Shown in pieces: positions 28,422 to 57,257 of a stretch of DNA of 60,741 nt. The notes beneath the pieces were generated by a model. It was not told the origin of the DNA, searched no databases, and saw only the letters and a program-made list of their open reading frames with translations. The position numbers and the translations under genes were made by a program. The stretch is from a virus. Lineage: Duplodnaviria > Caudoviricetes. Each line of letters begins with the position of its first letter. Within the stretch, counting starts at the first letter, position 1. The stretch is from positions 1-60,741 of IMG/VR virus record IMGVR_UViG_3300031576_000045, one strand, 5' to 3'.

Positions 28422-28424
28422 GGC

Positions 28425-29942
28425 CTACTCCTCCGCGGCGGGCCCGACCGTCGGCGGCCTGTTCGGCTTGGGCGGCTCGGGTGGTGCGGCCGTCGACGTC
28501 GCCGGCCTCGGCTTCTCCGGGGGCGGCGCGTTCGGGACGGCGCGCGCCGGCTCGGGGACGTCGGACTTCTGCGGCAGCTTCAGCATCTCGCGCAGCTTCC
28601 GCTCGATGGCGTCGTCGGGCACAAGCACACCGGCGCCGACGAGGTTGTTGATCGCCGTGGCGACGGCGTCCAGGTCCGGCGTCTCGAGGTCGCCGTACAC
28701 GAGCGACGGGTACTCGTCCGCCGTGTACCCGTTCAGCCCCATCAGTCGAGGGATCAGGTACCGGTTCACCGTCGACGCGATGTTCTCCATGTGACCGCCC
28801 AGCGCGGTCGAGAAGAGCGTCGTCTTCGTCGATGCGAGCGAGTAGCTGCCGACCTGCTGCGTCCCGAGGAAGATGAACTCCGCCAGCATGGTCATGGCGA
28901 TGCGCTGCTCGTGCCGCGTGACCACGCCCGACGTGTCGATCGACCTCCGGCCGGGCGACGCGATCAGCGCGAGCTCGTACCCGGTGTGCTCGCCCTTCGG
29001 GGTCATCTTCGCAGGGAAGACGATCCCCTCTCTCTCGTCGCGTCGGATCTGCTGCACCAGCGTCTGGTACAGCTGCCGCAGCTGCTTCTGCTGCGGCGTC
29101 GCCGACGGAGACATGATCTCCGGTGGCACGTACGCGACGGGCAGGCCGGTCAGGTCGCGCTCGATGCCGATCGCCTCGATCTCTTCGATCCGCTTCGCGA
29201 AGTGCCACGGGCGGTACGCATTGCGGAGACACGACCGGCCTTCCGGGTTGTTCTTCCGCGACGTCGTGCGGAACAGCAGCGCGCGCTGCAGCGGGATCAG
29301 GACCGTCGTCTGGCCAGACCACGGGTCCTGCTGCCACATGCCCAGCACGGTCCCTTCGTTGTCGAACTCCCACCGGTCGAGCGTGTCCTGCGATCGGATC
29401 GACAGCTTGCGCAGGCCGACGCGCCCGTCGGTGAAGCGCGACCGGTAGCGCGCGTCGTCGCCGGGCCCGCGGCGCAGCTTGTAGACGATCTCGAAGAAGC
29501 TCCACCCGAACGGCAGCATGGACAGCACCTCGGCGACGAACTCGTCCCAGGTGTGGCTCATGTCCTCGATGCACTCCTCGAAGAACTTCGCCGCCTCCTT
29601 CTGCCGCGGCGTCTCGCCCTGCGGTTCGACGCGCCACTCGACCTGACGCAGCAGCATCTCGATCACGTACAGCACCGCGCCGACGATCGGGCTGTTGTCG
29701 CTCATCTCGCGGTACACGCGCGCGGCGCGGCGGCCGGAGAGCTTGACTAGCAGTTCCTCGTCGACGTACCCGCCCGTGCGCCGCAGGCCGGTCGTGCCGA
29801 TGGGGACGTCCATCGGGAGCTTGCTCGCGGCCTCGAGCTCGGACGGCGGCGCAGAGTCGGTCGCCGGCGTCGACTGCGGAAGCTGAGCGGCGGGTTCGGG
29901 TTCGGCCTTCTCGAACCACGACGTCGGGTCGTACCAAGCCAT
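28425..29942 (-). CDS. portal protein (DUF935-like)
   Basis: MLPFGWSFFEIVYK..NNPEGRSCLRNAYRPW..IERDLTGLP..GSYSLA. Confidence 0.92.
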   Translation of the reverse strand: MAWYDPTSWFEKAEPEPAAQLPQSTPATDSAPPSELEAASKLPMDVPIGTTGLRRTGGYVDEELLVKLSGRRAARVYREMSDNSPIVGAVLYVIEMLLRQVEWRVEPQGETPRQKEAAKFFEECIEDMSHTWDEFVAEVLSMLPFGWSFFEIVYKLRRGPGDDARYRSRFTDGRVGLRKLSIRSQDTLDRWEFDNEGTVLGMWQQDPWSGQTTVLIPLQRALLFRTTSRKNNPEGRSCLRNAYRPWHFAKRIEEIEAIGIERDLTGLPVAYVPPEIMSPSATPQQKQLRQLYQTLVQQIRRDEREGIVFPAKMTPKGEHTGYELALIASPGRRSIDTSGVVTRHEQRIAMTMLAEFIFLGTQQVGSYSLASTKTTLFSTALGGHMENIASTVNRYLIPRLMGLNGYTADEYPSLVYGDLETPDLDAVATAINNLVGAGVLVPDDAIERKLREMLKLPQKSDVPEPARAVPNAPPPEKPRPATSTAAPPEPPKPNRPPTVGPAAEE

Positions 29943-29945
29943 CGG

Positions 29946-30179
29946 TCAGCCTCCGAAGAGAACCAGCAGGAACAGCGCGGTCACGAACGAGCCGAGGACG
30001 ACGCCGATGGTGAACGACGCCAGCGTCGACGGCCGCTCGAACGAGGTTGGGTGCAGCCAACCGCACTTGTTGCAGAACTGATCCGCCAGGTACTGGCACT
30101 CGCGCCCGTCGCGTGGGCGCAGGTGCCGGGTGCCGACGAGGACGGAGAAGCCGTGCATTCGCGCAACGTACCTCGTCAT
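29946..30179 (-). CDS. small membrane protein with Zn knuckle
   Basis: FCNKCG and C-terminal TM; ATGA overlap with terL. Confidence 0.55.
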   Translation of the reverse strand: MTRYVARMHGFSVLVGTRHLRPRDGRECQYLADQFCNKCGWLHPTSFERPSTLASFTIGVVLGSFVTALFLLVLFGG

Positions 30180-31720
30180 GAAGTCCACGGCGACTCGCGC
30201 GTGCCTTCGAGGTCTGGCTCTGCAGACGGCGCCGGCCCGTCGCCGTGCTCCTCGAGCAGCCACGCGTAGCCGCCCGACGCGGCGTCGGCCTGGTCCTTGT
30301 AGCCCTTGGGCAGCTGCACCAGCTCGTTCACGAAGTCGCGGTTCCATGCGCCGCGCACAAGGTACAGCGCGCCGAAGCGCGCGATGCCGGCGAGCGGGCG
30401 CCACATCTCTTCCTTGCTGCCGGTCTTGTGGTGCTCGTGCACGTCCCACCCGCGCAGGGTGCGCACCGCGTACCCGCGGACGACGGCCTTCCCCGAGCTG
30501 CCGGGCTCGCGCTCGATCGCCACCGGGACCTCCTTCCCGTCGGTCTCGGCCGTCGCGCGCACGAACAGCTCGACGTCGCCGGGCTCAAGTCGCGCGCGCA
30601 CGGCGTCGGCGATGATGACTCGCATCGCGCCGGCCTCGTCGAACCACAGCCCGACCTTCACGCCGGCAGACCACGCCGGGTCCTTACCCTCGTTCTCCTC
30701 GAGCTCGGGGTCCGTGCCGGCGAGGTCCCAGTAGCGCACCCACTGCACGTCGGCCGGCTCTTCTTCCAGGAACCGCGCGAACCACTCGCGCTTGAAGATC
30801 TTGCCCGACGGCTGCGCGTCCCAGTCGCCCTCGGCGTACCAGGCGTACTCGACCGGGTCGAGCTGCGCGAGGTTGAGCAGGTACCCGCGCCGGTCGAGCG
30901 ACGGGTTGTCGTCGGCGAACGCGGGCACGAAGTGCGCGCCCTGCGCGACGACGCCGAGCTTCCGGGCGATCTCCTTCACCTGCTCGGACGGCGGCGACTG
31001 GAAGACCGGGAGACCGACGCGGCTCCCCTTGCGCCATCCCTTGTACGGGTGCCCGGTCCCGAGCTGCGCGGCGTGCTCGACGAAGCGCGCCTTCACCCAC
31101 TCGTGGCCGACGCCGCCCGGGTTCGTGTTCGCGCGCATCCGCGTCGGGATCTTCGCGTCGGTGCTGCGCAGGCGGGAGAACAGGAAGACGTAGTCCCCCT
31201 CGTCCCACTCCGTCAGCTCCTCGACACCGATGAACTGGTAGGCCGGGCCCTTCCACTTGTCGCGGTCCTTCGTGAACTTCAGGTGGCCGAACGAGATCGT
31301 CGCGCCGGGATTCGAGTCGTACGTCGGGAACCTGAACCCCAGCAGCCCGGCGTCCCACTGCGCGGCCGTGCCGGCGAACCACTTCTTCGCGCGGTCGAGG
31401 ATCGCGTCGGCCTTGAACAGGTCGGTCTCGCTGCGCCGGAGGATCAGCGCCGAGTACGTCGGTCGGTCGACGTACTGCAGCCCGGCCAGCAGCAGTGCGT
31501 CCGACTTCCCGCCGCCCGCGGCTCCGCCGTACAGGCACTCCTGCGCGTCGAGCTCAAGGAACGTCCGCTGCTTTGGGTGCGGTGAGTGGGGGCTGTACGG
31601 CTTCACCGCCACCCGGAGCGTCTCGTCCGCCCGGTCGCGACGGATCTCCATCAGCTTCAGCGCCGCTCTTTCCGCCAGCGAGGGCATGTAGCGCGCGCTC
31701 GTAGCCTTGTATGTCGTCAC
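30176..31720 (-). CDS. terL: terminase large subunit
   Basis: LYGGAAGGGKS, IGVEELTE, ANTNPGG, RYWDLA, DQADA. Confidence 0.95.
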   Translation of the reverse strand: MTTYKATSARYMPSLAERAALKLMEIRRDRADETLRVAVKPYSPHSPHPKQRTFLELDAQECLYGGAAGGGKSDALLLAGLQYVDRPTYSALILRRSETDLFKADAILDRAKKWFAGTAAQWDAGLLGFRFPTYDSNPGATISFGHLKFTKDRDKWKGPAYQFIGVEELTEWDEGDYVFLFSRLRSTDAKIPTRMRANTNPGGVGHEWVKARFVEHAAQLGTGHPYKGWRKGSRVGLPVFQSPPSEQVKEIARKLGVVAQGAHFVPAFADDNPSLDRRGYLLNLAQLDPVEYAWYAEGDWDAQPSGKIFKREWFARFLEEEPADVQWVRYWDLAGTDPELEENEGKDPAWSAGVKVGLWFDEAGAMRVIIADAVRARLEPGDVELFVRATAETDGKEVPVAIEREPGSSGKAVVRGYAVRTLRGWDVHEHHKTGSKEEMWRPLAGIARFGALYLVRGAWNRDFVNELVQLPKGYKDQADAASGGYAWLLEEHGDGPAPSAEPDLEGTRESPWTS

Positions 31721-32234
31721 CGAACGCCTCCTTCAGCCGGTCCAGAGCGCCGTCGAACTCTCCGGCGATGTGCAGTCGGACCTGCGGCACGAACTCCTCG
31801 GGGTCCGTGATCGCCCCGAGCGCCTGAGCTGCGCGCCAGTCGCCCGGCTTCTTCGCGGTCCCCTGCGCCGCGCGTCTGATCTGCAGCTTCAGCAGCGTTC
31901 GACGTCGCGCGCCGGCCCCCTCTATCAGCCGGGCGAACAGGACATAGACGCCGGGGTCGTCGGCCTGGGCCAGCTTGCCCGCGCGGCCCTTCTCGAGCCA
32001 CTGCTGCCCGGTGTCGTACACGACGCCGGACGTGAGGCACGCGTCCTTGAACGACGCGGAGTTCGCCACGCGGTCGGCGATCTCCTGCGCGATGGCGGCG
32101 GTCAGGGCGGTACGCCGGCCCGGCATCGTCGGGGGCAGCGGCCCCTGAGCGGGAGCTGCCGCAGCCGGCGCCGGCCGGACTCGCCGGAGCTTCCGCCGCC
32201 GCGGGTGCTTCTTCTTCGTCGTTCTCCGCGCCAC
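31554..32234 (-). CDS. terminase small subunit candidate
   Basis: Upstream of and overlapping terL; HTH-like GRRTALT..WLEKG..DWRAA. Confidence 0.7.
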   Translation of the reverse strand: MARRTTKKKHPRRRKLRRVRPAPAAAAPAQGPLPPTMPGRRTALTAAIAQEIADRVANSASFKDACLTSGVVYDTGQQWLEKGRAGKLAQADDPGVYVLFARLIEGAGARRRTLLKLQIRRAAQGTAKKPGDWRAAQALGAITDPEEFVPQVRLHIAGEFDGALDRLKEAFGDDIQGYERALHALAGGKSGAEADGDPSRPGGRDAPGGGEAVQPPLTAPKAADVP

Positions 32235-32272
32235 GCGGTCAGACTACCTCGGCCGGAGTAGAGGGGAGAATC

Positions 32273-32476
32273 TCACGTCGACTTCGCGCCGGGATTCTCC
32301 CCGGCAGACGGGCGTGAGTAGACGAGCAGCGGAGCGTGCCACGCCTGGCGTTCCCATCCCCACCGACGGCGGGCCCAGAACCCGGCGCACCCGCCCTCGC
32401 GGTACGGGCTCATGCACCAGGCGCGGGCGTCGACCACGAGCATCGGGCCGCCGCAGGTCGGGCATGTCCGGATCAC
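32273..32476 (-). CDS. small Zn-ribbon protein
   Basis: VIRTCPTCGGPM..WC..GC; GTGA overlap. Confidence 0.55.
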   Translation of the reverse strand: MIRTCPTCGGPMLVVDARAWCMSPYREGGCAGFWARRRWGWERQAWHAPLLVYSRPSAGENPGAKST

Positions 32477-32649
32477 TGCCTGGCGCCCTTGTGCGACTCG
32501 TGGGGGCAGGTCGCGTGCTTTCGCTGCGGCCGAGACTTCGAGGTAATCCACAGGTCGTGTCCGCAGCTGAGTTCGAGGCACCATCGCAGCTCGTTGATCG
32601 GAGACTGACGCGCGTCTCGCACCTCGACTCGGAGACCCTCGTTCGTCAC
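32473..32649 (-). CDS. small protein absent from the ORF track
   Basis: VTNEGLRVEV..WCLELSCGHDLW..TCPH; GTGA overlaps at both ends. Confidence 0.55.
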   Translation of the reverse strand: MTNEGLRVEVRDARQSPINELRWCLELSCGHDLWITSKSRPQRKHATCPHESHKGARQ

Positions 32650-32882
32650 CGCTGCACCGCGCAGTTCGCCCGGCCAGTGACGAACGCCTCGATCAGCTCG
32701 TCGTTGCGCCGCGTCGCGACCTGCATCGCCTGGAACCGCGCCACGTGGCGCTCGAGGATCACGACGCAGCGGTTAGCCGCGGCCTCCCACTCTTCGGCGT
32801 CGCGCGCCGCGTGCGCGTCGCCCACCAGGTACCCGACCAGCAGCGCAGCGGCTATCAGCATTACTGTCTTCATCGTCTTCAT
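32646..32882 (-). CDS. small exported/membrane protein
   Basis: Hydrophobic N-terminus. Confidence 0.6.
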   Translation of the reverse strand: MKTMKTVMLIAAALLVGYLVGDAHAARDAEEWEAAANRCVVILERHVARFQAMQVATRRNDELIEAFVTGRANCAVQR

Positions 32883-33040
32883 CGGCGTCTCCTCCTACGT
32901 CGCTTGGTGGGTATGGGCGCAGGAGGTGGAGCCCAACGGCGCTTGATCTCGTCACGCGCGAGCTCGCCAATGGCGGCCCCGATTACAGCAGCGGTGGCTG
33001 CGAGCAGCGCCACGCCAACTTTCTTCAGCGCCTCTTTCAC
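32879..33040 (-). CDS. small single-TM protein
   Basis: VGVALLAATAAVIGAAIG. Confidence 0.5.
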   Translation of the reverse strand: MKEALKKVGVALLAATAAVIGAAIGELARDEIKRRWAPPPAPIPTKRRRRRRR

Positions 33041-33399
33041 CGCCGTGTCCCCAAGGTCGAACCGAGTGCGCGGCGCGTGTCGACGAAGTCGAGTCGGGCG
33101 CGCGCGCGGTTCGCCGCGTCCTCGTACGCGCGCCTCGCCGGGTTGTTGAACTTCAGCTCGTCGGCGCGCGCGTCGCAGTGCGCAGCGAACCTGCGGAACC
33201 ACGTCGACGCGTCGGGGCTGTTTCGCGTCTTCGCGTAGTGGCACCGTACCGACAGCACCCAGCACGTCGCCTCAGATTCCTCCGCCTTGGCCCGGCCGAA
33301 GAAGTGATCGACCTCTCCGGGCGGGACTTTCGCGCCACAATGACATTCGCAGTGGCCGCGGCATCGAACGAGCAGCGCCTGGTGGAGAACGGCGTCCAT
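33037..33399 (-). CDS. HNH-like endonuclease (possibly packaging-associated)
   Basis: CECHCG..EVDHFFGR..LSVRCHYAKT. Confidence 0.7.
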   Translation of the reverse strand: MDAVLHQALLVRCRGHCECHCGAKVPPGEVDHFFGRAKAEESEATCWVLSVRCHYAKTRNSPDASTWFRRFAAHCDARADELKFNNPARRAYEDAANRARARLDFVDTRRALGSTLGTRR

Positions 33400-33770
33400 C
33401 AGCGCTTCACCGCCGCGCAGAGCGGCGCATGGCCGGTCATCTCTTCGCTGTCCTCGTAGCTGCACGTGCATTGCCTTGACCTCCACGCGTCGACGGCAGC
33501 GAGCACCGCGCGCTGCCCGTCGGCCGGCGTCGGTCCGAGCTCGTCCTTGAGCGCGTCGAACTGCCGCAGCTTCTTCCCGCGCATGATGCAGACGATCTCG
33601 AACCATCCCATCCCGCCTCGCGACGCGAGCTTCTCGAGATCCTGGTCGTGGTTCTCGATCGCCTGCCGCTCGAACTGTTGGATCCACGCCCACGGCACGG
33701 AGTGCGGCGGCGGCGTCTTTCGACGGTCCTCAGACAGCACCGGGAACTGTCTCTCTTGCTCGTTGCTCAC
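33399..33770 (-). CDS. hypothetical protein
   Basis: SVPWAWIQQFERQAIENHDQDLEKLASRGG. Confidence 0.7.
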   Translation of the reverse strand: MSNEQERQFPVLSEDRRKTPPPHSVPWAWIQQFERQAIENHDQDLEKLASRGGMGWFEIVCIMRGKKLRQFDALKDELGPTPADGQRAVLAAVDAWRSRQCTCSYEDSEEMTGHAPLCAAVKR

Positions 33771-34261
33771 GCGGCGTCCCGACTGCGCCCGATCAGCTTC
33801 TCGAAGAACGCGCGGGCGCGTGCCGCGTTCTTCGGTTCGTTCCACCATCGATTCAGGCCCGACGGGTGCGGCACGATCGCGAACTCCGTCTGCCGGTCGT
33901 CTCTGAATTTGAACCACTCGAACCAATCCCACGATGTCAGCGCGCCGAACGCGTCGGCGACGTTGCGGCCGACGAGCAAGACGTGCGTCCGAGACCACAC
34001 CTGAGGCTGAGTAAGCGTCGGCGTGCCGAAGAGAAGATCGCGGCCGACGTCGCGGGCGCGCGCGGCCGGCCACCTCGGGCCAGGGTACTCGTCGATCAGG
34101 TTCACCGCGTCGACGTTGCCGACGCCGGACGCCGACGAGCGCGTGACGCGCAGGCCCATCTCCCACAGCCTCTTCGCGCTGCGCTGCCGGCCGTAGAACG
34201 GCGGCCACCCGGGCGGCGTCGTGCGCGCCGGCGCCTCGCCGATCAGCAGCGGGCGCGTCAC
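33767..34261 (-). CDS. uracil-DNA-glycosylase-superfamily protein
   Basis: LLIGEAP (motif A), VLLVG, VPHPSGLNRWWN (motif B). Confidence 0.8.
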   Translation of the reverse strand: MTRPLLIGEAPARTTPPGWPPFYGRQRSAKRLWEMGLRVTRSSASGVGNVDAVNLIDEYPGPRWPAARARDVGRDLLFGTPTLTQPQVWSRTHVLLVGRNVADAFGALTSWDWFEWFKFRDDRQTEFAIVPHPSGLNRWWNEPKNAARARAFFEKLIGRSRDAA

Positions 34262-35079
34262 GTCGTCACCCGTGGAAGCGGCGAGGTCGGGATTGAGCCG
34301 CCCTCCCCGGTGGTGGTGCCACCGGGCGAGCCTTTTTCGCCGCGCTTCGGGTACGGCTGCCGTCTCTTCTCTACCATCTCTGCGAGTCTCTCGTCCTTCG
34401 GGTCCAGCAGGAAGACGTAGCGGCCCTTCGGGTTCGCGGTCTGCCGCTTCCACCCGTCGGCGAGAAGGCGCGCCTCGACCTGCTTGTTCGTCATCCCGGT
34501 GCGGCGCGCGTAGTCCGTCTGCTGGTTGAGGCTCCACAGCCGGCCCTTCGGGCTGACCCACTGCGGCCACGCGTCGCCCTTGCCGACGAAGGTCCAGTTC
34601 GTCGCCTGGTACACGGTGCCGATCTCCCCGGCGTCGGAGTCGGAGAACGCGATCGCCAGCTTCGAGCCGCGCTTCGCCTCGAGCTTCAGCGAGTAGCCGA
34701 TGAGCTTGGAATTCGTCCCGACCGGCGCCCAGTGCACGCACGCGCCGCGCACGAGGTAGGCGAGCTCGTGGTTCTCGATGCCGAACGACTTCGCCAGCGC
34801 CGGGAGCGCCTTCCCCGCTGGCGTCCAGCACGTGACGCCGGCGACGTACGGGCCGAACGAGAGGCCGTAGCACCGGTTCGTCGCGGTGCCCATGGTGCCG
34901 AGCCACTCGTACTTGAAGATGATCTGCTTCGCGACGTCGTACGCGACCGGGCCGACGCGCGCGGTCTTCAGGCTCAGGTCGACGTCCGGCGCCGGCTCGT
35001 GCTGGTGACGGTCGCGCAGCTGCTTCTGCCACGCGACGCCGCCCGACTCCTGGATGCTACGAAACGTGTGTCTCGACAC
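34258..35079 (-). CDS. mom: Mom-family (GNAT-fold) adenine modification protein
   Basis: KYEWLG..LVRGAC..NSKLIGYSLK..FSDSDAGEIGTVYQATNW..KGRYVFLL..PYPK. Confidence 0.85.
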   Translation of the reverse strand: MSRHTFRSIQESGGVAWQKQLRDRHQHEPAPDVDLSLKTARVGPVAYDVAKQIIFKYEWLGTMGTATNRCYGLSFGPYVAGVTCWTPAGKALPALAKSFGIENHELAYLVRGACVHWAPVGTNSKLIGYSLKLEAKRGSKLAIAFSDSDAGEIGTVYQATNWTFVGKGDAWPQWVSPKGRLWSLNQQTDYARRTGMTNKQVEARLLADGWKRQTANPKGRYVFLLDPKDERLAEMVEKRRQPYPKRGEKGSPGGTTTGEGGSIPTSPLPRVTT

Positions 35080-35656
35080 CTGGCACCTTCGCGATCGCCT
35101 CGACGTGGGCGCGGATCTTCTCGAACGCCGCGCGCGTGCACCTGACCTCGACGTAGACCTCGGACTCCAGAGACGGCTCGCCGGTCGGGTTCTGGTCCGG
35201 CAGCTCCAGCGAGGCGATCAGTTCGTCGACGTCGTCGCGCTCGAACCCGGTGCCGGCCAGCGCGTCGTCGCCCCACCCGGAGATCATGTCGACCAGCTCC
35301 GCGCGGTTCCAGTCGCCCTTCGCGACGAGGTTGTTGACCGCGACCAGGAACGCCTCGGCGTCGGCGTCGTTCTTCGACGACCACCCGCGCTGCACGGGGA
35401 TCAGCCACCGGTCGCCGTCGACCTCGACGCCGTCGGGCGGCGGCGCACCCTTCTTCTTCAGCGCCCCGAGCGCGTCGAGCCGACCGTGACCGCCGACGAT
35501 GCGTCCGGTTCGCTCGTCGTAGATCATCCCGTCGGCGTACCCGAACCGCGCCACCGACGCTTCGAGGTCTTCGTCGGCGTGCTTCTTCGGGTTACGCGCC
35601 GCCCGACGAATCTCGTCTAGCGGCATGTACTCCGTCCAGCGCTTCTGTTTCTTCAC
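35057..35656 (-). CDS. ParB/Srx-like N-terminal domain protein
   Basis: RNPKKH..SVARFGY..IVGGHGRLDAL..VNNL..GDW. Confidence 0.85.
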   Translation of the reverse strand: MKKQKRWTEYMPLDEIRRAARNPKKHADEDLEASVARFGYADGMIYDERTGRIVGGHGRLDALGALKKKGAPPPDGVEVDGDRWLIPVQRGWSSKNDADAEAFLVAVNNLVAKGDWNRAELVDMISGWGDDALAGTGFERDDVDELIASLELPDQNPTGEPSLESEVYVEVRCTRAAFEKIRAHVEAIAKVPGVETHVS

Positions 35657-35886
35657 TGGACCACCTCGACGTTGCGCGCGTTGACGATCTCGATCTGCTC
35701 GTACTCGCGACGGCCGTCCTTCTCGAAGACCGTCGGGGCGAAGAATACCGCGCGGTGCGGCACACCCTGATCGCGGGGGTCGAACGCGCAGACGACCGAC
35801 GGAAAGTCGTCGTCGTCGTCGACGGGCAGCTCGGCGGTGAACCGCACACCGCCCGCCGCGTTCAGGGTGACGCGCCGACCGCTCAT
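35653..35886 (-). CDS. hypothetical protein
   Basis: Overlapping start/stop codons, codon bias. Confidence 0.55.
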   Translation of the reverse strand: MSGRRVTLNAAGGVRFTAELPVDDDDDFPSVVCAFDPRDQGVPHRAVFFAPTVFEKDGRREYEQIEIVNARNVEVVQ

Positions 35887-36176
35887 GCCTCGGCCTTCGG
35901 CTTCTCTTCCTTCTCCGCCTTCTCCTTCCACGCCTTGATCGTGACCTTGTCCTCGGCGGTCAGCTTCACGTGGATCGGTGGGGCGGCCTCGGTGTCGACG
36001 TACTCCTTCACGCCGTGCTCGCGCATCGTCGCGATCAGCGACAGCTTCGTGTCGCGACGCTTAACCGCGGCGCGGGTGTGGCTGTTGATCGCGCTGCGGT
36101 GCTCGTCGGCCTTCTCGATCACCTTCTTGTGCACCTTCGCCCGCTCAGTACCAGGCACCTCGATCTGTCTCGTCAT
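35883..36176 (-). CDS. hypothetical basic protein
   Basis: Preceded by GGGAGAACGACG. Confidence 0.75.
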   Translation of the reverse strand: MTRQIEVPGTERAKVHKKVIEKADEHRSAINSHTRAAVKRRDTKLSLIATMREHGVKEYVDTEAAPPIHVKLTAEDKVTIKAWKEKAEKEEKPKAEA

Positions 36177-36218
36177 CGTCGTTCTCCCACTGCGTTCGCG
36201 CTGCGTTGGACTGCCACG

Positions 36219-37955
36219 TCAGAAGGGAATTTCATCGTCCGGAACCGCCGTCGTCGACGCCGGCTCGACGGGAGGCGTGAACCCGATCGCCGGCTTCTCC
36301 ATCGGCCACCGTTGCTTCTCGTACGCCTCGACGGCCGCGGCGAGCTTCTTCAGTCGCTGCCCATCGGGCGTTCCGTCCTTCGGGTCGAGGGCGACGAGTC
36401 GAGTCACCTCGGCGAGCGCGGCCTCGTGCTGCGCGTCGTCGATGACCGGCATCGCTCCCATGGCGAACGCGTCGACGACCGTCACCAGCTCTCCGTTCAC
36501 GGCCGGCACGGGCTTGTCGAGCTTCCAGTCGACGGGCTTGTACTTGTAGAACTTCGCGCACGTGCCGCGGTGCTTCTTCAGCGCGTCGAGGTCGGGGAAC
36601 TCGGCGTGACACGTACCGCACTCATACGTCGGCCCAGACAGAACAGAACTCGACCCGCCGTGCTGGGAGAACGACGGGCCGCCAGGAGGTGAAGCCGGCG
36701 ACTCTTCGATTCTAGGCGTGGCGGGTCGAGCTGCTGCCGGCGCAGCGTCGCCGCTGTCGGTCGGCTTCGCAAGCTCGCTGCCGGTGCCCTCCCAACCGGG
36801 CCGCGTCTTCCGCGCGAACATCTCGAGCCGCGGGCCCATCGGGCAGAGCTTGATCAGGTCTTCGTAGAAGACGTCGGGCTTCGCGGAGTGCTCGCCCACC
36901 GGGGCGCGGAACGACGTGCGCTGGATCGGGTTCCCGTGCTCTGCGCCGGTCGGGTTGTACGCGACGTCGCCGCGCACGAAGTAGATCGCGTGCTCGGTGT
37001 CTCCGCGCAGCGGGTCGCCGATGCCGCAGAAGTCCGAGCCGTCGGCCTCGGTCTTCACCCACGTGCGGATCTGCCGGGCCCGGAACCCGCGCGCCTCGAT
37101 CGACGCCTGCACGACGGCCCACGTCTTCAGGTCCAGCAGGATCGGGTTCGTCACCCAACAGACGAGCAGGCAGTTCGCCGCGGCGGGGATCGGGAACGCG
37201 CAGATCTCCTCGACCGTCATCGGTGGGTACGGTAGCGCGCCGGCCTGCGACTCGTTGCCCTCGCGCTTGTCGCCGTACGTCCACGAGTAGTCGACGGAGA
37301 TCACCGCGAACTCGCCGGGCGGCGGCTTGTACTGCTTCGCGAGCGCGAGCTGCCCGCGCTTCCGGATGCGGCGCTCGGCCTGCTTCACCGTCAGCTCACC
37401 GGCGAAGACCTGCTTCGCCAGCGCGGGGTCCGTCTTGGTGACGAACTCGGCCCGCTCGACGGTGCGCGAGGAGACCTTGTAGCCCGAGGAGTCAGAAGCG
37501 ATCTGCGCGGCGGACTTCGACGGCGCCTTCTTCGCCGGGCGCTTGCCGCTCTTGCGCTGCGTGTTCGTGTCGCGCGCGGCTTGGCGCTGACGCTCCTTCG
37601 CCTCGGCGCGCAGCATCGGCAGCAGGCGTGCGGCGACCATCGCGCGCTGCGACTCGTTCAGGTGGCGGCGGTCGACGTTCGCGCCCTTCACGAACTCAGC
37701 GACCGACTTCCTCCCGTGCTTCGTCTCCGCGTACCACTCGACCACAAGAAGCTCGGTCGTCGGCGCGAGCTTCTTCTCGGAGACGAGCTGGCGGATCGCC
37801 TCTTGTCGGTTGCGGCCGTCGAGGAGCTTCCCGTCGAGGATGACCGCGGCGAACAGCTGGCCCTGCGAGACGATGCTCTGCTTGAGAGCGTCCATCTCCG
37901 ACTGCTTCATCGGCGGCAGCGTCAGCGCTGCCCCGTGCGGCTTATAGATCCTCAT
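36219..37955 (-). CDS. ParB-like + MT-A70 methyltransferase-like + Zn finger + HigA-N-like fusion
   Basis: LLDGRNR..NVDRRHLNESQRAM; YPPMTVEEI..WVTNP..EHSAKP..RLEMFARKTRPGW; CGTC..H; HEAALAEV..GTPDG..VEAYE. Confidence 0.85.
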   Translation of the reverse strand: MRIYKPHGAALTLPPMKQSEMDALKQSIVSQGQLFAAVILDGKLLDGRNRQEAIRQLVSEKKLAPTTELLVVEWYAETKHGRKSVAEFVKGANVDRRHLNESQRAMVAARLLPMLRAEAKERQRQAARDTNTQRKSGKRPAKKAPSKSAAQIASDSSGYKVSSRTVERAEFVTKTDPALAKQVFAGELTVKQAERRIRKRGQLALAKQYKPPPGEFAVISVDYSWTYGDKREGNESQAGALPYPPMTVEEICAFPIPAAANCLLVCWVTNPILLDLKTWAVVQASIEARGFRARQIRTWVKTEADGSDFCGIGDPLRGDTEHAIYFVRGDVAYNPTGAEHGNPIQRTSFRAPVGEHSAKPDVFYEDLIKLCPMGPRLEMFARKTRPGWEGTGSELAKPTDSGDAAPAAARPATPRIEESPASPPGGPSFSQHGGSSSVLSGPTYECGTCHAEFPDLDALKKHRGTCAKFYKYKPVDWKLDKPVPAVNGELVTVVDAFAMGAMPVIDDAQHEAALAEVTRLVALDPKDGTPDGQRLKKLAAAVEAYEKQRWPMEKPAIGFTPPVEPASTTAVPDDEIPF

Positions 37956-38144
37956 CGTCGTTCTCCCGTCACAGGTGTCTCCCGTTCAGATCTCGTCGTC
38001 AAGGTCACGGCGAACCTATGACCCGCGTGTGCTTGCTGCACCTCTTGCAGATCGCGAGGGCCGGGATTACCGGGTCGCACCGCGTCTCCGCGACCCACCG
38101 GTGACCGAACAGCCAGCAGCGAAGCCTGATGTGCCATGGCGGCC

Positions 38145-38446
38145 TCACGGTAGCCGAGCCCTCACGCGACGGAGAGCGTCTCCGAGCTGCTGGCCGTCGT
38201 ACTTCGTCTGTGGGTGGTCGCTCACCTCGCCGTCGCGCTTGCGGTCGGCGGCGGCGATCTCCTCATCGACGATCGCCTTAGCGTCGACGTCGCGCGCCGA
38301 CTCGATCGCCTTCAAGAGCTTCACGATCGCTACGTCGGCCATCGACCACGCGCGACCGCCAGGCGGCGAGTAGACGCGCCGAACCTCGACGGCCAGAGAC
38401 TTGAGCATCGCAATCACTTGAGCTTGCCCTTCTGGAACTGCCCCAT
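38145..38446 (-). CDS. hypothetical protein; start-motif ORF (10 aa) out of frame with the body
   Basis: Motif-led ATG gives MGQFQKGKLK*, overlapping GTG of ORF 38145-38417. Confidence 0.5.
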
Positions 38447-38466
38447 CGTCGTTCTCCCGTGGACGG

Positions 38467-39045
38467 CTAGTAGTCGAGCACGTCGAGATCGTCCTCGCTC
38501 GGCGGGCTGTACCTCACGACTCCGCTGCTGATCGTCACCCCGGACCCCCCGCGGTGCGCTCCGACGTGGGCGACCCCGAGCGCGTCGGTCGCGTCCGTGT
38601 CGGCGTCGAAGACCATCGGCATCGGGTACGCGCGCGCGAGCACCCGCGCGACCTGCTCCTTCGATGCGTCTTTCCTGCCGGTCACGGCCTGCTTCAGGAT
38701 CTCGGGACGCACCTCGGCGAGGGTGACGCCGCGCGCGAAGCAGATCCCCTCGACGAGGCCGCGCATGCGCCCGGCCGTGTGCACGGCGATCTTGCCGTCT
38801 CGCAGCCCGAGCACCGGCGACTCTATGTAGGCGTCCTGCACGCCGAACTCGGTGAACAGCTCGGCGATCCTCACGGCCAGCTCGCGGCACCGGCGCGCGC
38901 GGTCCTCGAGCTTGCCGGCGTCGGCGTCGATCTTCGTTCGCCATGTGCCGAGCGTCTGCAGGTACGGCTGACCGCCGACCTCGCGGCGCATGACCGCGTA
39001 GCCGAACGCCGCGATCGACGGGTCGAGCCCTGCCCAGACGGTCAC
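38467..39045 (-). CDS. ruvC: RuvC-like Holliday junction resolvase
   Basis: AGLDPS, AYIES, LKQAVTGRKDASKEQV, DATDALGVA. Confidence 0.9.
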   Translation of the reverse strand: MTVWAGLDPSIAAFGYAVMRREVGGQPYLQTLGTWRTKIDADAGKLEDRARRCRELAVRIAELFTEFGVQDAYIESPVLGLRDGKIAVHTAGRMRGLVEGICFARGVTLAEVRPEILKQAVTGRKDASKEQVARVLARAYPMPMVFDADTDATDALGVAHVGAHRGGSGVTISSGVVRYSPPSEDDLDVLDY

Positions 39046-39230
39046 GAAGCCCTCTTCGCCGCGACTGCGTCGGGCCACGTGCTGTAGGGGAAGTCGTGCG
39101 GGCCGACGTGCCCGCGCTGGCGCACGAGACACCTGCAGCCCTCGCCGTCTACCTCGCGGCAGCGGCCGTCGTCGAACTGCGAGACCTTGAGGCGGATGAT
39201 GCGCACTTCGCCATCGGTGAGCCGGATCAT
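39042..39230 (-). CDS. small Cys/His protein
   Basis: C..RCLVRQRGHVGPH. Confidence 0.5.
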   Translation of the reverse strand: MIRLTDGEVRIIRLKVSQFDDGRCREVDGEGCRCLVRQRGHVGPHDFPYSTWPDAVAAKRAS

Positions 39231-39697
39231 TCGCTTTCCCTCTCCTGCGCTCTCGTTCGCAGGACGACGGGGCGACGAAGCTGGTCGATGGGCCTAGTCA
39301 GCGCATCCTCAACACTCCAGCCGGCGCGGAGCCGTGCGTTGACGGCTTCTCGACTGAAGCCAACACGCCTCGCCCACTCCGAGACGCTCAACGACAAACC
39401 GGCATGAGTGAGCAGCCGAACGGCTGAACTGTTCTCGACCTGCTGCTGAATTGTCGCCCACCGCACGTTGCCCGGCTCGTAGTTGCCGTCGTTGTCGATG
39501 CGATCGAGCGAATAGCCAGGACCCGGACGCGGCCCGATGTCTCGAAAGAAGGCCATGAAATCGTGTCGCCACTGTGGACACACGGAGATGCCTCGCCCTC
39601 CATAGCGACGGAACAGGTGATAGCTCCTTCGTTCGCAGCGGGCGATCATTGAGCCCCACGCCTGGTACTCGACCGATTTCCACATCCCATGTTTCAT
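39227..39697 (-). CDS. HNH homing-endonuclease-like protein
   Basis: WGSMIARC..YGGRGISVC..SLDRIDNDGNYEPGNVRWAT; visibly lower GC. Confidence 0.9.
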   Translation of the reverse strand: MKHGMWKSVEYQAWGSMIARCERRSYHLFRRYGGRGISVCPQWRHDFMAFFRDIGPRPGPGYSLDRIDNDGNYEPGNVRWATIQQQVENSSAVRLLTHAGLSLSVSEWARRVGFSREAVNARLRAGWSVEDALTRPIDQLRRPVVLRTRAQERESE

Positions 39698-40056
39698 CGC
39701 GCAACCGTCCTTTGCTGCCGTACCAGATTGCCCTTGCGCCGATCGCGCGCGTGGGCGCGGTGATAGGCCGTCTCACACACAGGGTCTCCGCAGTGTTTGG
39801 GCGCCTTGCGTCCAGGTTTTTCTGGCGGCAGAGGATCGAGACAGAACGGACACCGGCCGTCCGGCGTCCGGTCTCGCATGCGCTCGAGGCCCGGCGCCGT
39901 CGTCTTCCGTCGACCCTTCTTCGTGCCGAACCCGAGCTTCGCCCGGCGCATGCGCTCGGCGCGCGCCTTCCACCACAGCCGGCACTTCCGCGCGCCGCAC
40001 GTGTTCCGACGTCGGTCCGCGATGGGGCCGCCGCAATGGAGGCAGCGGTCCGTCAC
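39694..40056 (-). CDS. double Zn-finger basic protein
   Basis: CLHCGG..CGARKC; CPFC..HCGDPVC. Confidence 0.65.
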   Translation of the reverse strand: MTDRCLHCGGPIADRRRNTCGARKCRLWWKARAERMRRAKLGFGTKKGRRKTTAPGLERMRDRTPDGRCPFCLDPLPPEKPGRKAPKHCGDPVCETAYHRAHARDRRKGNLVRQQRTVAR

Positions 40057-40934
40057 GCTGCTCTCGCGATGGGGAATTCCTGGCGCTGCAGCTCGCGCGG
40101 CCAGAGCGTCGGCTCGTCGCCCTTCCCGAGGCACGAGATCGGCTTCGTGACGCCGGCGATCGTGTCGACGACGTTCGATCCCTTCTGCTTCATGAAGAAG
40201 GCGACATTCGCGTCTTCGCACTGGCGCTTGATGTTGCGCGCCCACTGCAGGTCGAACGGCCGCGCGTCCTCGGTCGCGCCCTCGTCGCTCTCGCCGCCGA
40301 CGATGACCCAGCCGACCTGCTCGAACGCCGGGTGCGACGCGAAGTCGACGTCGCTCAGCAGCGGTTCGGCGCTGATCCAGTAGAGCGCAGCGTCGACGCG
40401 CAGCAGGTGGTCGAGACGCGAGACGTACGCCTGCGACTCGACGGTCGTCCCGAGCCACACGTGCGGCCAGTCCTCGCCGGGCGGCGGGCAGTCGACGCGT
40501 TCCTTCTCGAACCCGGTCTTCAACGTCACGCCGGCCGGGATCGACGTCGGCCAGAGCCGTGCGATGTTCTCGGGGCGCTTGGTCAGCAGCTGCCAGGTGA
40601 GCGCGGGCGTCGCCCGAATGAGCGCGAACAGATCGGGCCGCACCTCGCTCCAGGTTGGGTGATCTTCGAAGACGTCGGAGAGGCTCGCGCAGAAGACGAG
40701 GTGGCGCTTCCTCAGCGCGATCGCCGCCCTGTTCCAGCGCAGGGCGTTGTTCCAGGTCGAGCGCGAGGTGCGGTAGCGCGGCGCGGTCGGGCCCCAGTGC
40801 GCCTCGCCGCCCCACCGCTTCCGCGCGTCCTGCACTTCGGCATAGCAGAGCTGGCAGCCAGGGCTGACGCGCTGGCACCCAATCACTGGATTCAGGGTGC
40901 TGTCTGTCCATGTAATGCCTGTGCTCTCTCCCAT
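40053..40934 (-). CDS. DUF5131 (phage Gp37/Gp68) radical-SAM-like protein
   Basis: ITWTDSTLNPVIGCQRVSPGCQLCYA, FCASLSDVF, LLTKRPE, SAEPLL, WVIVGGES, FFMKQ. Confidence 0.92.
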   Translation of the reverse strand: MGESTGITWTDSTLNPVIGCQRVSPGCQLCYAEVQDARKRWGGEAHWGPTAPRYRTSRSTWNNALRWNRAAIALRKRHLVFCASLSDVFEDHPTWSEVRPDLFALIRATPALTWQLLTKRPENIARLWPTSIPAGVTLKTGFEKERVDCPPPGEDWPHVWLGTTVESQAYVSRLDHLLRVDAALYWISAEPLLSDVDFASHPAFEQVGWVIVGGESDEGATEDARPFDLQWARNIKRQCEDANVAFFMKQKGSNVVDTIAGVTKPISCLGKGDEPTLWPRELQRQEFPIARAA

Positions 40935-40935
40935 T

Positions 40936-41352
40936 TTACGCAGCCCTCCGTTTCGCATTGATGCGTTTCCAGAATTCTGACCCGCGCGGAGTCCGCGCCC
41001 GGTCGTGCGCGCGGCGACACTCGCGACACAATCGATTTCCATTCGTCTTTTTGATTGTGTTCTCCGTGGTGAACTCATGTCCACGCGCGCAGTGCGTCCA
41101 CGTCGCTCTGCCATCGCGGCGGGCGTGGCACATCGTGCAGACCGACTGGACGTCATGGTGATGCTCTGCCGCGTAGCCGAGGTGGTGATCGTATTCGTGT
41201 CGGCGTTCGCCAGGACGCCACACGTGGCCGCAATCTGTACACGGCAATGTATTAGGATGCGGTCTACGCCCCGTCCTCACCTCGACGTTGACCCGTTGTC
41301 TGGCCTGGATCTTATCTCCATCGCGCGGCGGCTTCGGCTTGGGTCCGGACAT
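40936..41352 (-). CDS. HNH-like endonuclease with C-terminal Zn finger
   Basis: CTDCG..EYDHH..VCTMCH; HCARGHEFTTENT..CRECRR; lower GC. Confidence 0.8.
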   Translation of the reverse strand: MSGPKPKPPRDGDKIQARQRVNVEVRTGRRPHPNTLPCTDCGHVWRPGERRHEYDHHLGYAAEHHHDVQSVCTMCHARRDGRATWTHCARGHEFTTENTIKKTNGNRLCRECRRAHDRARTPRGSEFWKRINAKRRAA

Positions 41353-41389
41353 CAGCGTCGCTCCAGCTCGCGCTCGATCGCACTGCTTC

Positions 41390-41803
41390 TCATCGTCGTT
41401 CTCCCGTCTTCTTTGCGCGCTGGATCGCGAGCGCGAACGCGTGCTGCACCTGCTCACTTCTGCGGTCGAAGACCATCAGCCACTCTTCAAGGGTCGGCTC
41501 CGAGAAGGCTACGCGGCAGAGGCGCTGCCACTGACGCGCGCGCTCGACCGTGGTTGGCTTCTGCTCGAGAACGAACCGCGCCTCGGCCGCGTGCGCCGGG
41601 GCGATCACCGACTCGAGCACGTACCAGCCTTCCGGGTACGCACCGCACGTCAGCAGCGCGCCGTGCACGGAGAATCGGGCCACGCCTTCCTCGGACTCCC
41701 AGCACTGGCGCCCCGACGAGTCGAGACAGAAGGGCTCGTTCTCGGCTCCCGACCAACCGCAGGTCTTCATCAGGTGCAGTGCGCGCTTCAGCTCGGAGAT
41801 CAC
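41390..41803 (-). CDS. DUF6197-like protein
   Basis: GW..FSVHGAL..W..RRSEQVQHAFALAI. Confidence 0.5.
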   Translation of the reverse strand: MISELKRALHLMKTCGWSGAENEPFCLDSSGRQCWESEEGVARFSVHGALLTCGAYPEGWYVLESVIAPAHAAEARFVLEQKPTTVERARQWQRLCRVAFSEPTLEEWLMVFDRRSEQVQHAFALAIQRAKKTGERR

Positions 41804-42357
41804 TTCAGGACCTGGACCCACTTGTTCGACTGCCAGAAGTCCTCTACCGACCAGCGGTTCCCCCACGCCGGCACGAGCGAGGGCTGAGAAATCAGCCCTG
41901 GCGTGATGAAGGGCACGTTGCCGGGCCCGAACCGATGGCCGTTCGAGTCGACCCCGCGGATGACGAGCAGGGAGTCTGGCGGCCCGTCGAACTTTCGACC
42001 GAGCCGACGCAGCACGTTCCGCACCGCGATGTCTTGAATGTGCGTGCTGAACGCTTCCTGCTTGGTGTAGTCCAGACCGCTCTCGACGTTCGTCGGCGCG
42101 TTGTCGATGCACTCCCCGAACGAGCAGATGAAGTCGACCTCCAGCGGATGGGCGCTCAGCTGTCGGAGGTAGCTCTCCTCGTAGAAGACGGTGCACGCCT
42201 TCTCGAAGCTGAAGTCGAACGCGCCCGCGACCCACGCGAGACGCCACCGTCCCTCGCCGTGCTTCGCGTTGAGCTCGGCGGTCTTCGCGTCGCGGCGTCG
42301 TCCGAAGTACCCAGGCCGATGGTCGCTCCTCCAGATGCTCTCAGCCAATTCGCTCAT
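41800..42357 (-). CDS. hypothetical enzyme-like protein
   Basis: GGAGG RBS; PGYFG..YEESY..HIQDIAVR..SVEDFWQSNK. Confidence 0.75.
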   Translation of the reverse strand: MSELAESIWRSDHRPGYFGRRRDAKTAELNAKHGEGRWRLAWVAGAFDFSFEKACTVFYEESYLRQLSAHPLEVDFICSFGECIDNAPTNVESGLDYTKQEAFSTHIQDIAVRNVLRRLGRKFDGPPDSLLVIRGVDSNGHRFGPGNVPFITPGLISQPSLVPAWGNRWSVEDFWQSNKWVQVLK

Positions 42358-44479: not shown

Positions 44480-44601
44480 TGCCGATCCGCCTTTCTTGCC
44501 TTCCTGGCGGCGACGAAGACCGCGCGTCTGCGCTCGCGCGCGCGGAACCACGCCGATCGCTTGCGTATCGCGAAGTCGATCTCTGCTTCCGTCTTCGTCA
44601 T
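44458..44601 (-). CDS. small basic protein
   Basis: GGGAGG RBS; MTKTEAEIDFAIRK. Confidence 0.55.
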   Translation of the reverse strand: MTKTEAEIDFAIRKRSAWFRARERRRAVFVAARKARKADRQWRQSTG

Positions 44602-44739
44602 GACCACCTCCCAGAGAACTGCACCCGCGGCGGCGCGTGACCGCCGCTCGCGGGTTCCGCCCGAAGGGCAGGATTCTGGAATCGAAGAACGACCGCGTCG
44701 GGTCACGCCGTTCGCGTCGGTCAACCTATGCCACGAATC

Positions 44740-56971: not shown

Positions 56972-56973
56972 CC

Positions 56974-57256: not shown

Positions 57257-57257
57257 C

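Follow-up and report, generated by a model that had tools for sequence, protein, structure and literature searches.

The writers of hypermodified phage DNA that have been catalogued so far are methylases, dioxygenases, transferases, ligases, and ParB-like activators. The Mom enzyme of phage Mu is reported to make N6-carbamoylmethyl-adenine from Gly-tRNA and to work as a single enzyme (PMC13219725), ParB homologs are reported to activate phage thymine dioxygenases on double-stranded DNA (dsDNA) (PMC13229309), and ParBc proteins are described as accompanying CmoX in a role given there as unknown (PMC12783734). Proteins with the uracil-DNA glycosylase (UDG) fold also act on modified bases. Escherichia coli MUG is reported to remove over-oxidised bases made in that host by phage dioxygenases (PMC13229309), titles in the Protein Data Bank (PDB) have TDG acting on 5-hydroxymethyluracil (5hmU), 5-formylcytosine, and 5-carboxylcytosine, and the host-encoded proteins Brig1, Brig2, and Brig3 excise a modified base to kill the phage. 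Here, we describe a phage-encoded UDG-like protein of 164 residues, termed mini-UDG, whose gene lies in a 60,741-bp virus record (IMG/VR record IMGVR_UViG_3300031576_000045; ~68% G+C, estimated 77% complete), the whole of which is called the window. The gene follows those of a stand-alone ParB-like protein (ParB199) and a Mom-family enzyme, downstream of a fusion of a ParB-like domain with an MT-A70 methylase, and the locus very probably holds the DNA-modification genes of a tailed, high-GC phage that is uncultured.

The Brig proteins, compared here by description only, resemble mini-UDG in being divergent UDG-fold proteins tied to hypermodified phage bases, and differ from it in being encoded by the host rather than by the phage. 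Dcm-Vsr and TET-TDG also place a lesion-removing enzyme next to a base modifier whose product or side reaction gives rise to mutagenic pyrimidine lesions, and their likeness to the window is one of analogy only. The E. coli dcm and vsr genes overlap. Vsr, unlike mini-UDG, is an endonuclease of unrelated fold, and the modifiers adjacent to mini-UDG in the window are of kinds that act on adenine. ParB-dependent thymine dioxygenases and ParBc-methyltransferase fusions share with the window a ParB N-terminal domain that is next to, or fused with, a post-replicative modifier, whereas the client here is a Mom-family enzyme and the Pfam ParB model is blind to both ParB-like domains of the window.

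A phage UDG-fold gene as part of hypermodification cassettes is something for which we found no published description, in a search that left supplementary tables and Iyer et al. 2013 outside its scope. In the main texts of PMC8989533, PMC11946847, PMC12783734, PMC13229309, PMC13219725, and a glycosyltransferase preprint, glycosylases are mentioned only as E. coli MUG or as the unrelated fold of the aGPT-Pplases, and 'uracil-DNA glycosylase' is absent from the hypermodification papers that a further literature search listed. This suggests that the association of the mini-UDG family with modification cassettes of many chemistries, which we document below, is new. New as well is ParB-Mom as a recurring pair; taken singly, Mom, MT-A70, ParB-like domains, and Dcm belong to known kinds.

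Mini-UDG recurs beside DNA-modification genes

A search of 1.84 billion representative proteins with a hidden Markov model (HMM) of the mini-UDG family (PHROG 12275) yielded 5,346 members at E ≤ 1e-3, 3,885 at E ≤ 1e-10, and 631 at E ≤ 1e-30. The best 150 representatives have a median length of 165 residues, and 147 of them carry PH[PT]S[GAR]. Among cultured phages, tblastn found 45 records, of which 41 are of the Pseudomonas Yuavirus type (gp48 of phage M6, for example), with 35 to 37% identity. The label 'uracil-DNA glycosylase' already stands on family members in some GenBank phage records.

Eighty viral mini-UDG loci were gathered with a 31-sequence alignment, and their open reading frames (ORFs) were clustered into neighbour families whose representatives were named by Pfam or NCBIfam. 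Iterated HMMs of each family, seeded on members checked with Pfam, were then run over all six frames. Within 7 kb on either side of mini-UDG, C5 methylase homologs are present in 27 loci, TET-associated glycosyltransferases (TAGT) in 20, N6_N4 methylases in 15, CmoA-like S-adenosylmethionine (SAM) enzymes in 14 (TIGR00740, E 1.3e-39, below the equivalog cut-off), amino-acid:DNA transferases (ADDT) in 13, and MT-A70 in 6; these are the six modification-enzyme families counted hereafter. ParB-like genes occur in 29 loci over the same distance. Within 1 kb of mini-UDG, 42 of the 80 loci hold a member of one or more of these families, and within 3 kb 59 do; the 59 comprise 54 loci with an enzyme of pyrimidine-C5 chemistry and 5 with amino-methylases only. 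Among the 51 loci with full flanks, a modifier stands at 0 to 3 kb in 36 versus 11 at 4 to 7 kb, and 29 modifier ORFs lie within 500 nt, versus 2 to 6 per 1-kb bin at 3 to 7 kb. This tight, distance-dependent linkage, together with the bias toward C5-pyrimidine chemistry, argues against a purely incidental housekeeping UDG.

Particular layouts recur as well. In about 14 loci, mini-UDG is found with components of the CmoX/CmoA/CmoY system for 5-carboxymethylcytosine (PMC12783734), in the order ParB, C5-methyltransferase homolog, mini-UDG, CmoA-like enzyme; the words 'glycosylase' and 'UDG' are absent from the main text of that paper, and no CmoA-like gene was found in the window. Loci with mini-UDG flanked by a C5-methylase homolog on one side and a CmoA-like gene on the other include L016-L018, L032, L036, L049, L050, L055, L064-L066, and L080. 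In a second recurrent layout, TAGT is encoded directly upstream of mini-UDG. In phage M6, gp48 stands 1.07 kb before the thymidine hypermodification genes gp51-54. Among 70 neighbours taken from 18 of the 20 TAGT loci, Pfam recognises TAGT in 14, thymidylate-synthase-like proteins in 2, and a 5-hydroxymethyldeoxyuridine (5-hmdU) kinase in 1, and Tet_JBP is not among the 25 families listed, of 41 that these neighbours match. A Pfam Tet_JBP search of 39 records gave no match and no positive control responded, hence it is uninformative on dioxygenases at TAGT loci.

A rapidly built tree of 70 mini-UDG rows, in which resolution is poor, requires 24 or more changes in the class of partner, against a possible minimum of 5 and a shuffled mean of 39.7. 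Partners are thus clustered on the tree, yet they have been exchanged repeatedly. One neighbour cluster, 'c9' of our in-house set, was rejected as an antisense shadow of C5-methyltransferase genes in high-GC DNA.

In 2 of the best 150 representatives (P0438, 413 residues; P0366, 385 residues), mini-UDG is attached to the C-terminus of a domain of ~240 residues. This domain matches Asn_synthase in P0438 only (Pfam E 7.4e-4, 19.7 bits, under the cut-off of 21), and it carries a Ser-x-Gly-x-Asp-Ser stretch that we take to be PP-loop-like. The two fusions may hint at a physical partnership with an amide ligase like CmoY, the 5-carboxymethylcytosine (5cxmC) ligase, which is an asparagine-synthetase homolog (PMC12783734).

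Homologs are also encoded outside recognised phages. A strict pattern scan of one genome per prokaryotic species found 28 distant loci, mostly in Verrucomicrobiota metagenome-assembled genomes (MAGs), and 2 distant loci were found on metagenome contigs. None of the six enzyme families is nearby in 24 of the 28 genome loci, among which L166 has a ParB-like gene only; such loci indicate that the enzyme can act by itself. The MAG copies could be chromosomal repair genes or unrecognised prophages. Verrucomicrobiota MAGs of the Udaeobacter type (L167-L193) sometimes hold two mini-UDG homologs per genome.

The pairing with Mom is confined to the window

An initial, sequence-only reading of the window had taken Mom and the glycosylase to form a unit, which called for a survey of gene neighbourhoods. 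Among the other mini-UDG loci, Mom was found in none of the 80 viral loci by tblastn and in none of the 30 genome and metagenome loci, a count of 0 in 110. It was also lacking from 50 whole records, drawn from the 80, that were searched with the Pfam model, for which the window's own Mom served as a positive control and was found at 66.9 bits. Reciprocally, none of 80 viral Mom loci, gathered with a 32-sequence Mom alignment, contains mini-UDG at E ≤ 0.01. Among the loci examined, the pairing of Mom with mini-UDG is unique to this window and is not conserved, and the notion of a glycosylase-Mom unit is not supported.

The closest relative of the locus, L004, has 57% identity in mini-UDG and 66% in the large terminase subunit (TerL), and in it a ParB-N6_N4 methylase fusion replaces ParB and Mom. 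L004 and the window are sisters on the mini-UDG tree (Shimodaira-Hasegawa-like approximate likelihood ratio test, SH-aLRT, 96). The closest protein relatives (P0002-P0010) are 52 to 66% identical, and gene context was seen among them for L004 only.

A UDG fold with apparently hybrid active-site motifs

The Pfam UDG model (PF03167) matches mini-UDG at 27.1 bits, against a cut-off of 24.3. The structure modelled by AlphaFold2 (AF2) has a per-residue confidence (pLDDT) of 91.6 and a predicted template modelling score (pTM) of 0.88, and its best Foldseek match is human TDG (E 2.8e-5, template modelling (TM) score 0.70), followed by MUG, UdgX, and family-4 enzymes, at a probability of 1.00. VIA-align gives Z scores of 11.5 for MUG (root-mean-square deviation 3.2, 142 residues aligned), 11.5 for TDG, 11.3 for the family-4 enzyme UDGa of Thermus, and 10.8 for UdgX; this range of 10 to 11.5 over 135 to 153 residues points to the alpha/beta UDG fold. 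No Brig chain is among the Foldseek and VIA-align matches listed for the model. By profile comparison, the best solved relative is an uncharacterised protein of Streptococcus mutans (3ikb, E 7.5e-5), followed by UdgX variants (best UdgX chain E 0.0037), and Thermus UDGa is reached at E 0.52. The model is also matched (Z 10.6) by the N-terminal UDG-like domain of 9qhs_A, a phage family-A DNA polymerase solved 'with modified template', and so a further UDG fold taken up by a phage whose DNA is modified.

Invariant among the 31 aligned sequences are G8, A10, P11, N54, H132, P133, S134, and N141. Motif A of the window protein reads G-E-A-P-A, of which GEAP aligns on GEAPG or GEQPG of UdgX and family-4 chains, and in the same HMM alignment the 'TNAVK' Asn corresponds to N54 and the HPS His to H132. 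In Thermus UDGa the equivalents are N80 for N54 and H155, the leaving-group His, for H132, and a Phe corresponds to the pocket residue F54. N80 of that enzyme is reported to bond uracil N3/O4, H155S to cost about three orders of magnitude in k2/Km, and the single E41Q change to lower k2/Km ~900-fold (PMC5387724). Similarity to MUG is found in the motif B loop, where PHPSGLNRW aligns with PNPSGLSRV of the E. coli enzyme (hhalign, probability 62, E 7.4e-5); Ala10 falls opposite the catalytic Asn in motif A of MUG (GINPG). The loop of MUG reads the orphan guanine.

MUG and TDG share the fold with mini-UDG, and MUG also has a nearly identical PSGL-x-R loop and a similar small size (168 residues versus 164), whereas both have a catalytic Asn in motif A, where mini-UDG has Ala, and a motif B that starts with Asn, where mini-UDG has His. 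Families 1 and 4, unlike MUG and TDG, have the Asn that contacts uracil N3/O4, and mini-UDG has it too. Family-4 UDGa and UdgX further resemble mini-UDG in G-E-A-P, in H-P-S, and in the pocket Asn and Phe, but they are ~30 to 40 residues longer, their sequence similarity is marginal, and most mini-UDG members have Q-A in motif A rather than E-A/G. Family-4 UDGa typically has four cysteines that ligate a 4Fe-4S cluster; mini-UDG has no cysteine, so that such a cluster is impossible in it. The position of the residue that gates access of C5 substituents (E47 in family 4, Y66 in family 1) is variable in the mini-UDG family. Judged from these alignments, the motif set is a hybrid of families 1/4 and MUG. 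The uracil-contact Asn, the His, the MUG-like loop, and the variable C5-gating position together suggest an active uracil-type enzyme that possibly tolerates C5 substituents.

We compared the pocket across partner classes in 77 loci and the window, 3 of the 80 loci being dropped for short HMM coverage. The Asn, the Gly, and the PH[PT]SG..W.N block are near-universal in ADDT-, C5-methylase-, TAGT-, and amino-methylase-linked classes. This constancy argues against the proposal, made in the sequence-only reading, that the glycosylase removes bases from DNA without the phage mark, since such an enzyme would need a different pocket according to whether its partner acts on C, T, or A. Motif A does vary at its second residue, which is Glu in 7 of 8 loci linked to amino-methylases or MT-A70, and in the Mom-linked window, and Gln in 22 of 25 C5-methylase-linked and 11 of 11 ADDT-linked loci. 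This split by partner may reflect lineage rather than function. A candidate second UDG paralog (in-house cluster 'c14') was rejected as HMM contamination, a second weak match being present in only 1 of the 80 loci.

ParB199 and Mom as a recurring pair

The window's Mom scores 66.3 bits with the PF25680 model, whose cut-off is 27.1. Phage Mu is not among the organisms listed for a tblastn search with this protein at 1e-3, and the 32-sequence Mom alignment matches Mu Mom in hhalign with a probability of 96.9 (E 1.6e-10, 203 columns). In this profile-based alignment, at 23% identity, the window protein retains residues that correspond to R111, S124, D149, and Y159 of Mu Mom, and all four are invariant in the 32 sequences. 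The two enzymes differ at the equivalent of R151, which is Asp (Asp149) here, and at those of H58/Y59, which are Glu/Trp. R111 and S124 are reported to be essential in Mu Mom and R151A to be inactive (PMC13219725). The Asp at the R151 position means that the product of this Mom may not be the Mu modification. The two loci also differ in that a ParB-like gene precedes Mom in the window and no Com-like regulator is present.

A ParB-like ORF lies within 3 kb of Mom in 20 of the 80 Mom loci. Where enough upstream sequence is available (72 loci), 12 have a ParB-like gene immediately before Mom in the same orientation, and 11 of the 18 loci that hold the nearest Mom homologs are among them. In six cultured Microbacterium phages, an annotated 'ParB-like nuclease domain protein' abuts a Mom-like acetyltransferase. 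This recurrent adjacency, and the activation of thymine dioxygenases by ParB homologs, lead us to read ParB199 and Mom as a two-gene module. By that analogy ParB199 could be a helper of Mom, a suggestion that we regard as evenly balanced. A complex prediction from the Mom and ParB199 alignments scored 0.02 against a mark of 0.32, which is no evidence either way, and 'ParB' occurs nowhere in the main text of the Mom paper (PMC13219725).

ParB199 itself matches PHROG 620, 'ParB-like partition protein' (E 2.5e-22), and also PHROG 498 (E 8.1e-22), in this case the N-terminal region of a family of methyltransferases. Its NPK...H and GGHGR motifs are shared in an alignment of 26 ParB-like ORFs (ParB199 and 25 others), in which N22 and G56 are invariant and GH-x-R is present in most rows. 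The Pfam ParB model matches neither ParB199 nor the N-terminus of the MT-A70 fusion, even at E ≤ 10, and Pfam ParB_N matches 2 related ORFs in TAGT loci. The ParB-like proteins that adjoin Mom have a common C-terminal V/I-E-I/V-x-C (window positions 35057-35200; L087, L089, L091, L092, and L097), and those that adjoin C5-methylase homologs have a CPxCG zinc-ribbon-like motif instead. These C-terminal segments may be client-specific adaptor tails.

The ParB-like/MT-A70 fusion

Residues 216 to 394 of the fusion form its MT-A70 domain (Pfam E 8.5e-17, 62.1 bits, cut-off 23.9), and the C-terminal extension has a weak C2H2-like zinc-finger match. Motif IV (residues 222-225, positions 37279-37290) is DYSW in place of DPPW and so retains the Asp and Trp but neither proline. 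Among 60 aligned homologs of the fusion, motif IV is DPPW in 16, DFSW in 6, and DVPW in 5; DPAW also occurs in close homologs, and D-[FYV]-[SP]-W variants are common. On these motifs, adenine N6 methylation by the fusion is plausible.

The N-terminal 200 residues (128 homolog rows) match a ParB199-like profile with a probability of 91.3 (hhalign, E 9.4e-7, 85 columns), and the alignment pairs LLDGRNR of the fusion with IVGGHGR of that profile. Both ParB-like domains thus have a Gly-x-x-Arg box after a beta-strand (GGHGR / DGRNR). This N-domain is mobile, and in the 120 homologs listed it is joined to MT-A70, N6_N4, or Dam-type catalytic domains; 1 of these 120 matches PF02195, and the source records of several use the name Spo0J/ParB. 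The fusion N-terminus therefore appears to be ParB-like, a relationship visible by profile-profile comparison only, which is in line with the ParB/MT-A70 fusion of the sequence-only reading.

A tentative role in quality control and its rivals

The best explanation of the locus as a whole, a call that falls just short of even, joins the ParB-MT-A70 fusion, the ParB199 and Mom module, and mini-UDG as a quality-control enzyme. The MT-A70 fusion, with its ParB-like N-domain, would methylate adenine N6. Mom, like other enzymes of its type, would draw on charged tRNA for an aminoacyl group that it attaches to adenine N6 of dsDNA, and ParB199 would load or activate Mom on the duplex, as in the analogous cases of thymine dioxygenases and ParB-methylase fusions. 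Mini-UDG is no Mom-specific partner; it belongs to a large, chiefly viral branch of the UDG superfamily whose members accompany post-replicative modification cassettes of many chemistries. We tentatively infer from its pocket that it is a quality-control glycosylase, which may excise uracil or 5-substituted uracils, perhaps opposite G, from the phage's own DNA. Its substrates would be deaminated or mis-processed pyrimidines that arise as bases are flipped and chemically worked on, such as the products of C-to-U or 5-substituted-C to 5-substituted-U deamination, or over-oxidised or stalled intermediates, on the pattern of Vsr with Dcm and of TDG with TET. The earlier idea that the glycosylase edits by-products is retained in this broader form.

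A wider form of this proposal, offered with more reserve, is that the PHROG 12275 mini-UDG is a dedicated and so far unrecognised hypermodification component, either a TDG/Vsr-like proof-reader of 5-substituted pyrimidines that have been deaminated or over-processed, or a base-flipping subunit for the second-step enzymes, and that it has repeatedly moved between cassettes. The cassettes entered would be those for 5-carboxymethylcytosine, glycosylated 5hmU or 5-hydroxymethylcytosine (5hmC), aminoethyl-U, and amino-methylation, and here the ParB-Mom adenine module.

Several observations weigh against a quality-control role. The enzymes adjacent to mini-UDG in the window act on adenine and leave no obvious pyrimidine by-product, the sole cytosine enzyme, Dcm, lies at a great distance from them and in the alternative allele, and L004 also pairs mini-UDG with an amino-methylase fusion and has no C5 enzyme. 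The structural ranking does not separate MUG/TDG from family 4, so that mismatch specificity hangs on a single loop motif. Most family members have Q-A in motif A where the window protein has E-A; the likeness of Q-A to the impaired E41Q mutant means that many of them may catalyse slowly or only bind. The R151 equivalent of Mom is Asp. No recognised modifier lies within 3 kb in 21 of the 80 viral loci, where neighbours are a mixture of replication and repair genes (helicase, polymerase, ligase, and so forth), and the PP-loop-like fusions suit an accessory subunit as well as they suit repair. Finally, host glycosylases attack modified bases, those of M6 included, which makes counter-defence a live rival.

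The foremost rival is a plain housekeeping UDG for replication fidelity, encoded where accessory DNA-metabolism genes merely cluster. We consider this unlikely. It would account for the conserved uracil-contact Asn and catalytic His, for the stand-alone genome loci, for the viral loci that have replication and repair neighbours but no modifier, and for the GenBank label. It fits poorly with a proximity to modifiers that is tight and falls with distance, with the placement between CmoX-like and CmoA-like genes in about 14 loci, with the translational coupling of mini-UDG to Mom here, and with a C5-gating position that is not conserved.

Rather less likely is a role in counter-defence, in which mini-UDG, clustered with modification genes in an anti-defence island, competes for modified bases with host glycosylases of the Brig1/2/3 type or shields the bases from them, or else repairs uracil left by deaminase or dCTP-deaminase defences. 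Host UDG-fold defence enzymes do excise hypermodified bases; Brig2 is reported to restrict M6 and YuA (10.1101/2025.10.29.685425), which carry a mini-UDG homolog, Brig3 is reported to act with a base-modifying partner (10.64898/2026.02.25.707755), and the Q-A motif of most members suggests weak catalysis. The same pocket is nevertheless found across phages with very different modified bases, which is hard to square with base-specific shielding, and copies exist on MAG chromosomes where no phage context is recognised.

Mini-UDG could instead be a non-repair accessory subunit that uses the UDG fold to flip bases or dock on DNA, so that target sites are offered to the modification enzymes, and that excises little or nothing, although we give this reading still less weight. 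Translational coupling to a modifier, insertion within operons of multi-step pathways, and the P0438 and P0366 fusions with their weak Asn_synthase match all speak for it. There is, however, no single conserved partner, as the repeated changes on the tree attest; genome copies stand alone, the catalytic His and Asn are invariant, and Mu Mom has been reported to need no second protein (PMC13219725).

Self versus non-self discrimination, a restriction-modification arrangement of the R.PabI type in which the neighbouring modifier protects phage DNA from a UDG-fold glycosylase that takes a normal base out of unmarked host or competitor DNA, is highly improbable even though the two genes lie within 1 kb of each other in 42 of 80 loci and methylation-blocked restriction glycosylases of another fold are reported (PMC10273834), because the pocket residues are the same for C5-cytosine, thymine-derivative, and adenine-N6 partners and fit uracil rather than A or C, the Mom pairing is found in this window only, most genome loci lack the modification enzymes, and M6-type phages are reported to modify up to half of their thymidines only (PMC8989533), so that a T-directed enzyme would hit self.

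Organisation of the locus and of the source record

The island is a row of eight minus-strand genes just upstream of HNH, terminase, and portal genes (Table 1). Start and stop overlap in four successive gene pairs, as read from the sequence: by GTGA for orf92/ParB199 (35653-35656), Mom/mini-UDG (34258-34261), and mini-UDG/orf123 (33767-33770), and by 23 nt for ParB199/Mom. The Mom start is backed by N-terminal residues that are conserved across homologs. No match to orf123, which is translationally coupled to mini-UDG, was found in Pfam, PHROGs, NCBIfam, the protein atlas, or the 80 related mini-UDG loci. RuvC-like and HNH genes stand between the island and the DUF5131 gene. The DUF5131 protein reaches 46 of the 355 bits required by the NCBIfam model 'radical SAM mobile pair protein A', a weak and partial similarity, and a DUF5131 homolog is near mini-UDG in L038 too. 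The consecutive overlap of the ParB-like, Mom-like, and UDG-like genes and the position of DUF5131 2 kb upstream, both noted in the sequence-only reading, agree with these coordinates. Its layered modification island also stands, insofar as there are at least two adenine-directed enzymes, each bearing or accompanied by a ParB-like domain, and Dcm in a variant; the glycosylase as a unit with Mom is not supported.

Table 1. Coordinates of the island, of DUF5131, and of the variable terminal region in the window
Feature	Position	Strand	Match or remark
ParB-like/MT-A70 fusion, 578 aa	36219-37955	-	Pfam MT-A70
orf97, small ORF	35883-36176	-	High G+C at third codon positions (GC3); no Pfam or PHROG match
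orf92, small ORF	35653-35931	-	No family match; stop overlaps ParB199 start
ParB199, stand-alone ParB-like, 199 aa	35057-35656	-	PHROG 620, E 2.5e-22
Mom-family (GNAT-fold) enzyme, 273 aa	34258-35079	-	PF25680, E 4e-18
Mini-UDG, 164 aa	33767-34261	-	Pfam UDG, E 5e-6; PHROG 12275, E 8.9e-21
orf123, orphan ORF	33399-33770	-	Start overlaps mini-UDG stop
Weak HNH-like ORF		-	Eighth gene of the row, after orf123
DUF5131 protein	40053-41156	-	PF07505, E 7.2e-62; 2.1 kb upstream of the fusion
Allele A	160-6281		RecA and DUF6166
DUF6166 (allele A)	527-1486		
RecA (allele A)	1487-2524		PF00154, E 1.4e-94
Allele B	56676-60601		Carries C5 cytosine methylase
C5 cytosine DNA methyltransferase (Dcm), allele B only	57701-59242	+	PF00145, E 5.7e-26; PHROG 116, E 2.9e-78

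No cultured phage is close to the window: megablast of positions 28000-45000 found none, and TerL has less than 40% identity to its best match. Self-BLAST shows that the ends of the record are redundant, with 1-159 equal to 56517-56675 at 98% and 6282-6421 equal to 60602-60741 at 99%. One variable region is present in the assembly as two population variants between both anchors, and the true genome unit is probably ~56.5 kb. This two-allele assembly explains the earlier statement that an allele B adds Dcm. The methylase is indeed there. The relic of a second Mom that was said to accompany it was not found: the Pfam Mom model has one match in the whole record, and elsewhere the Mom-family HMM and tblastn, both at E ≤ 10, reach chance level only (best E 0.53).

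Implications

The ParB-Mom pairing extends the idea of ParB as an activator of DNA modifiers to a tRNA-dependent enzyme. Mini-UDG is a small, well-folding, cysteine-free UDG with hybrid motifs, and it could serve in the detection of modified bases. If mini-UDG is a binder or a shield, it is relevant to Brig1-3, the recently discovered glycosylases of host defence. If it is a proof-reader, then phages would both pay and manage the mutagenic cost of rewriting their bases, a viral parallel to Dcm-Vsr and TET-TDG.

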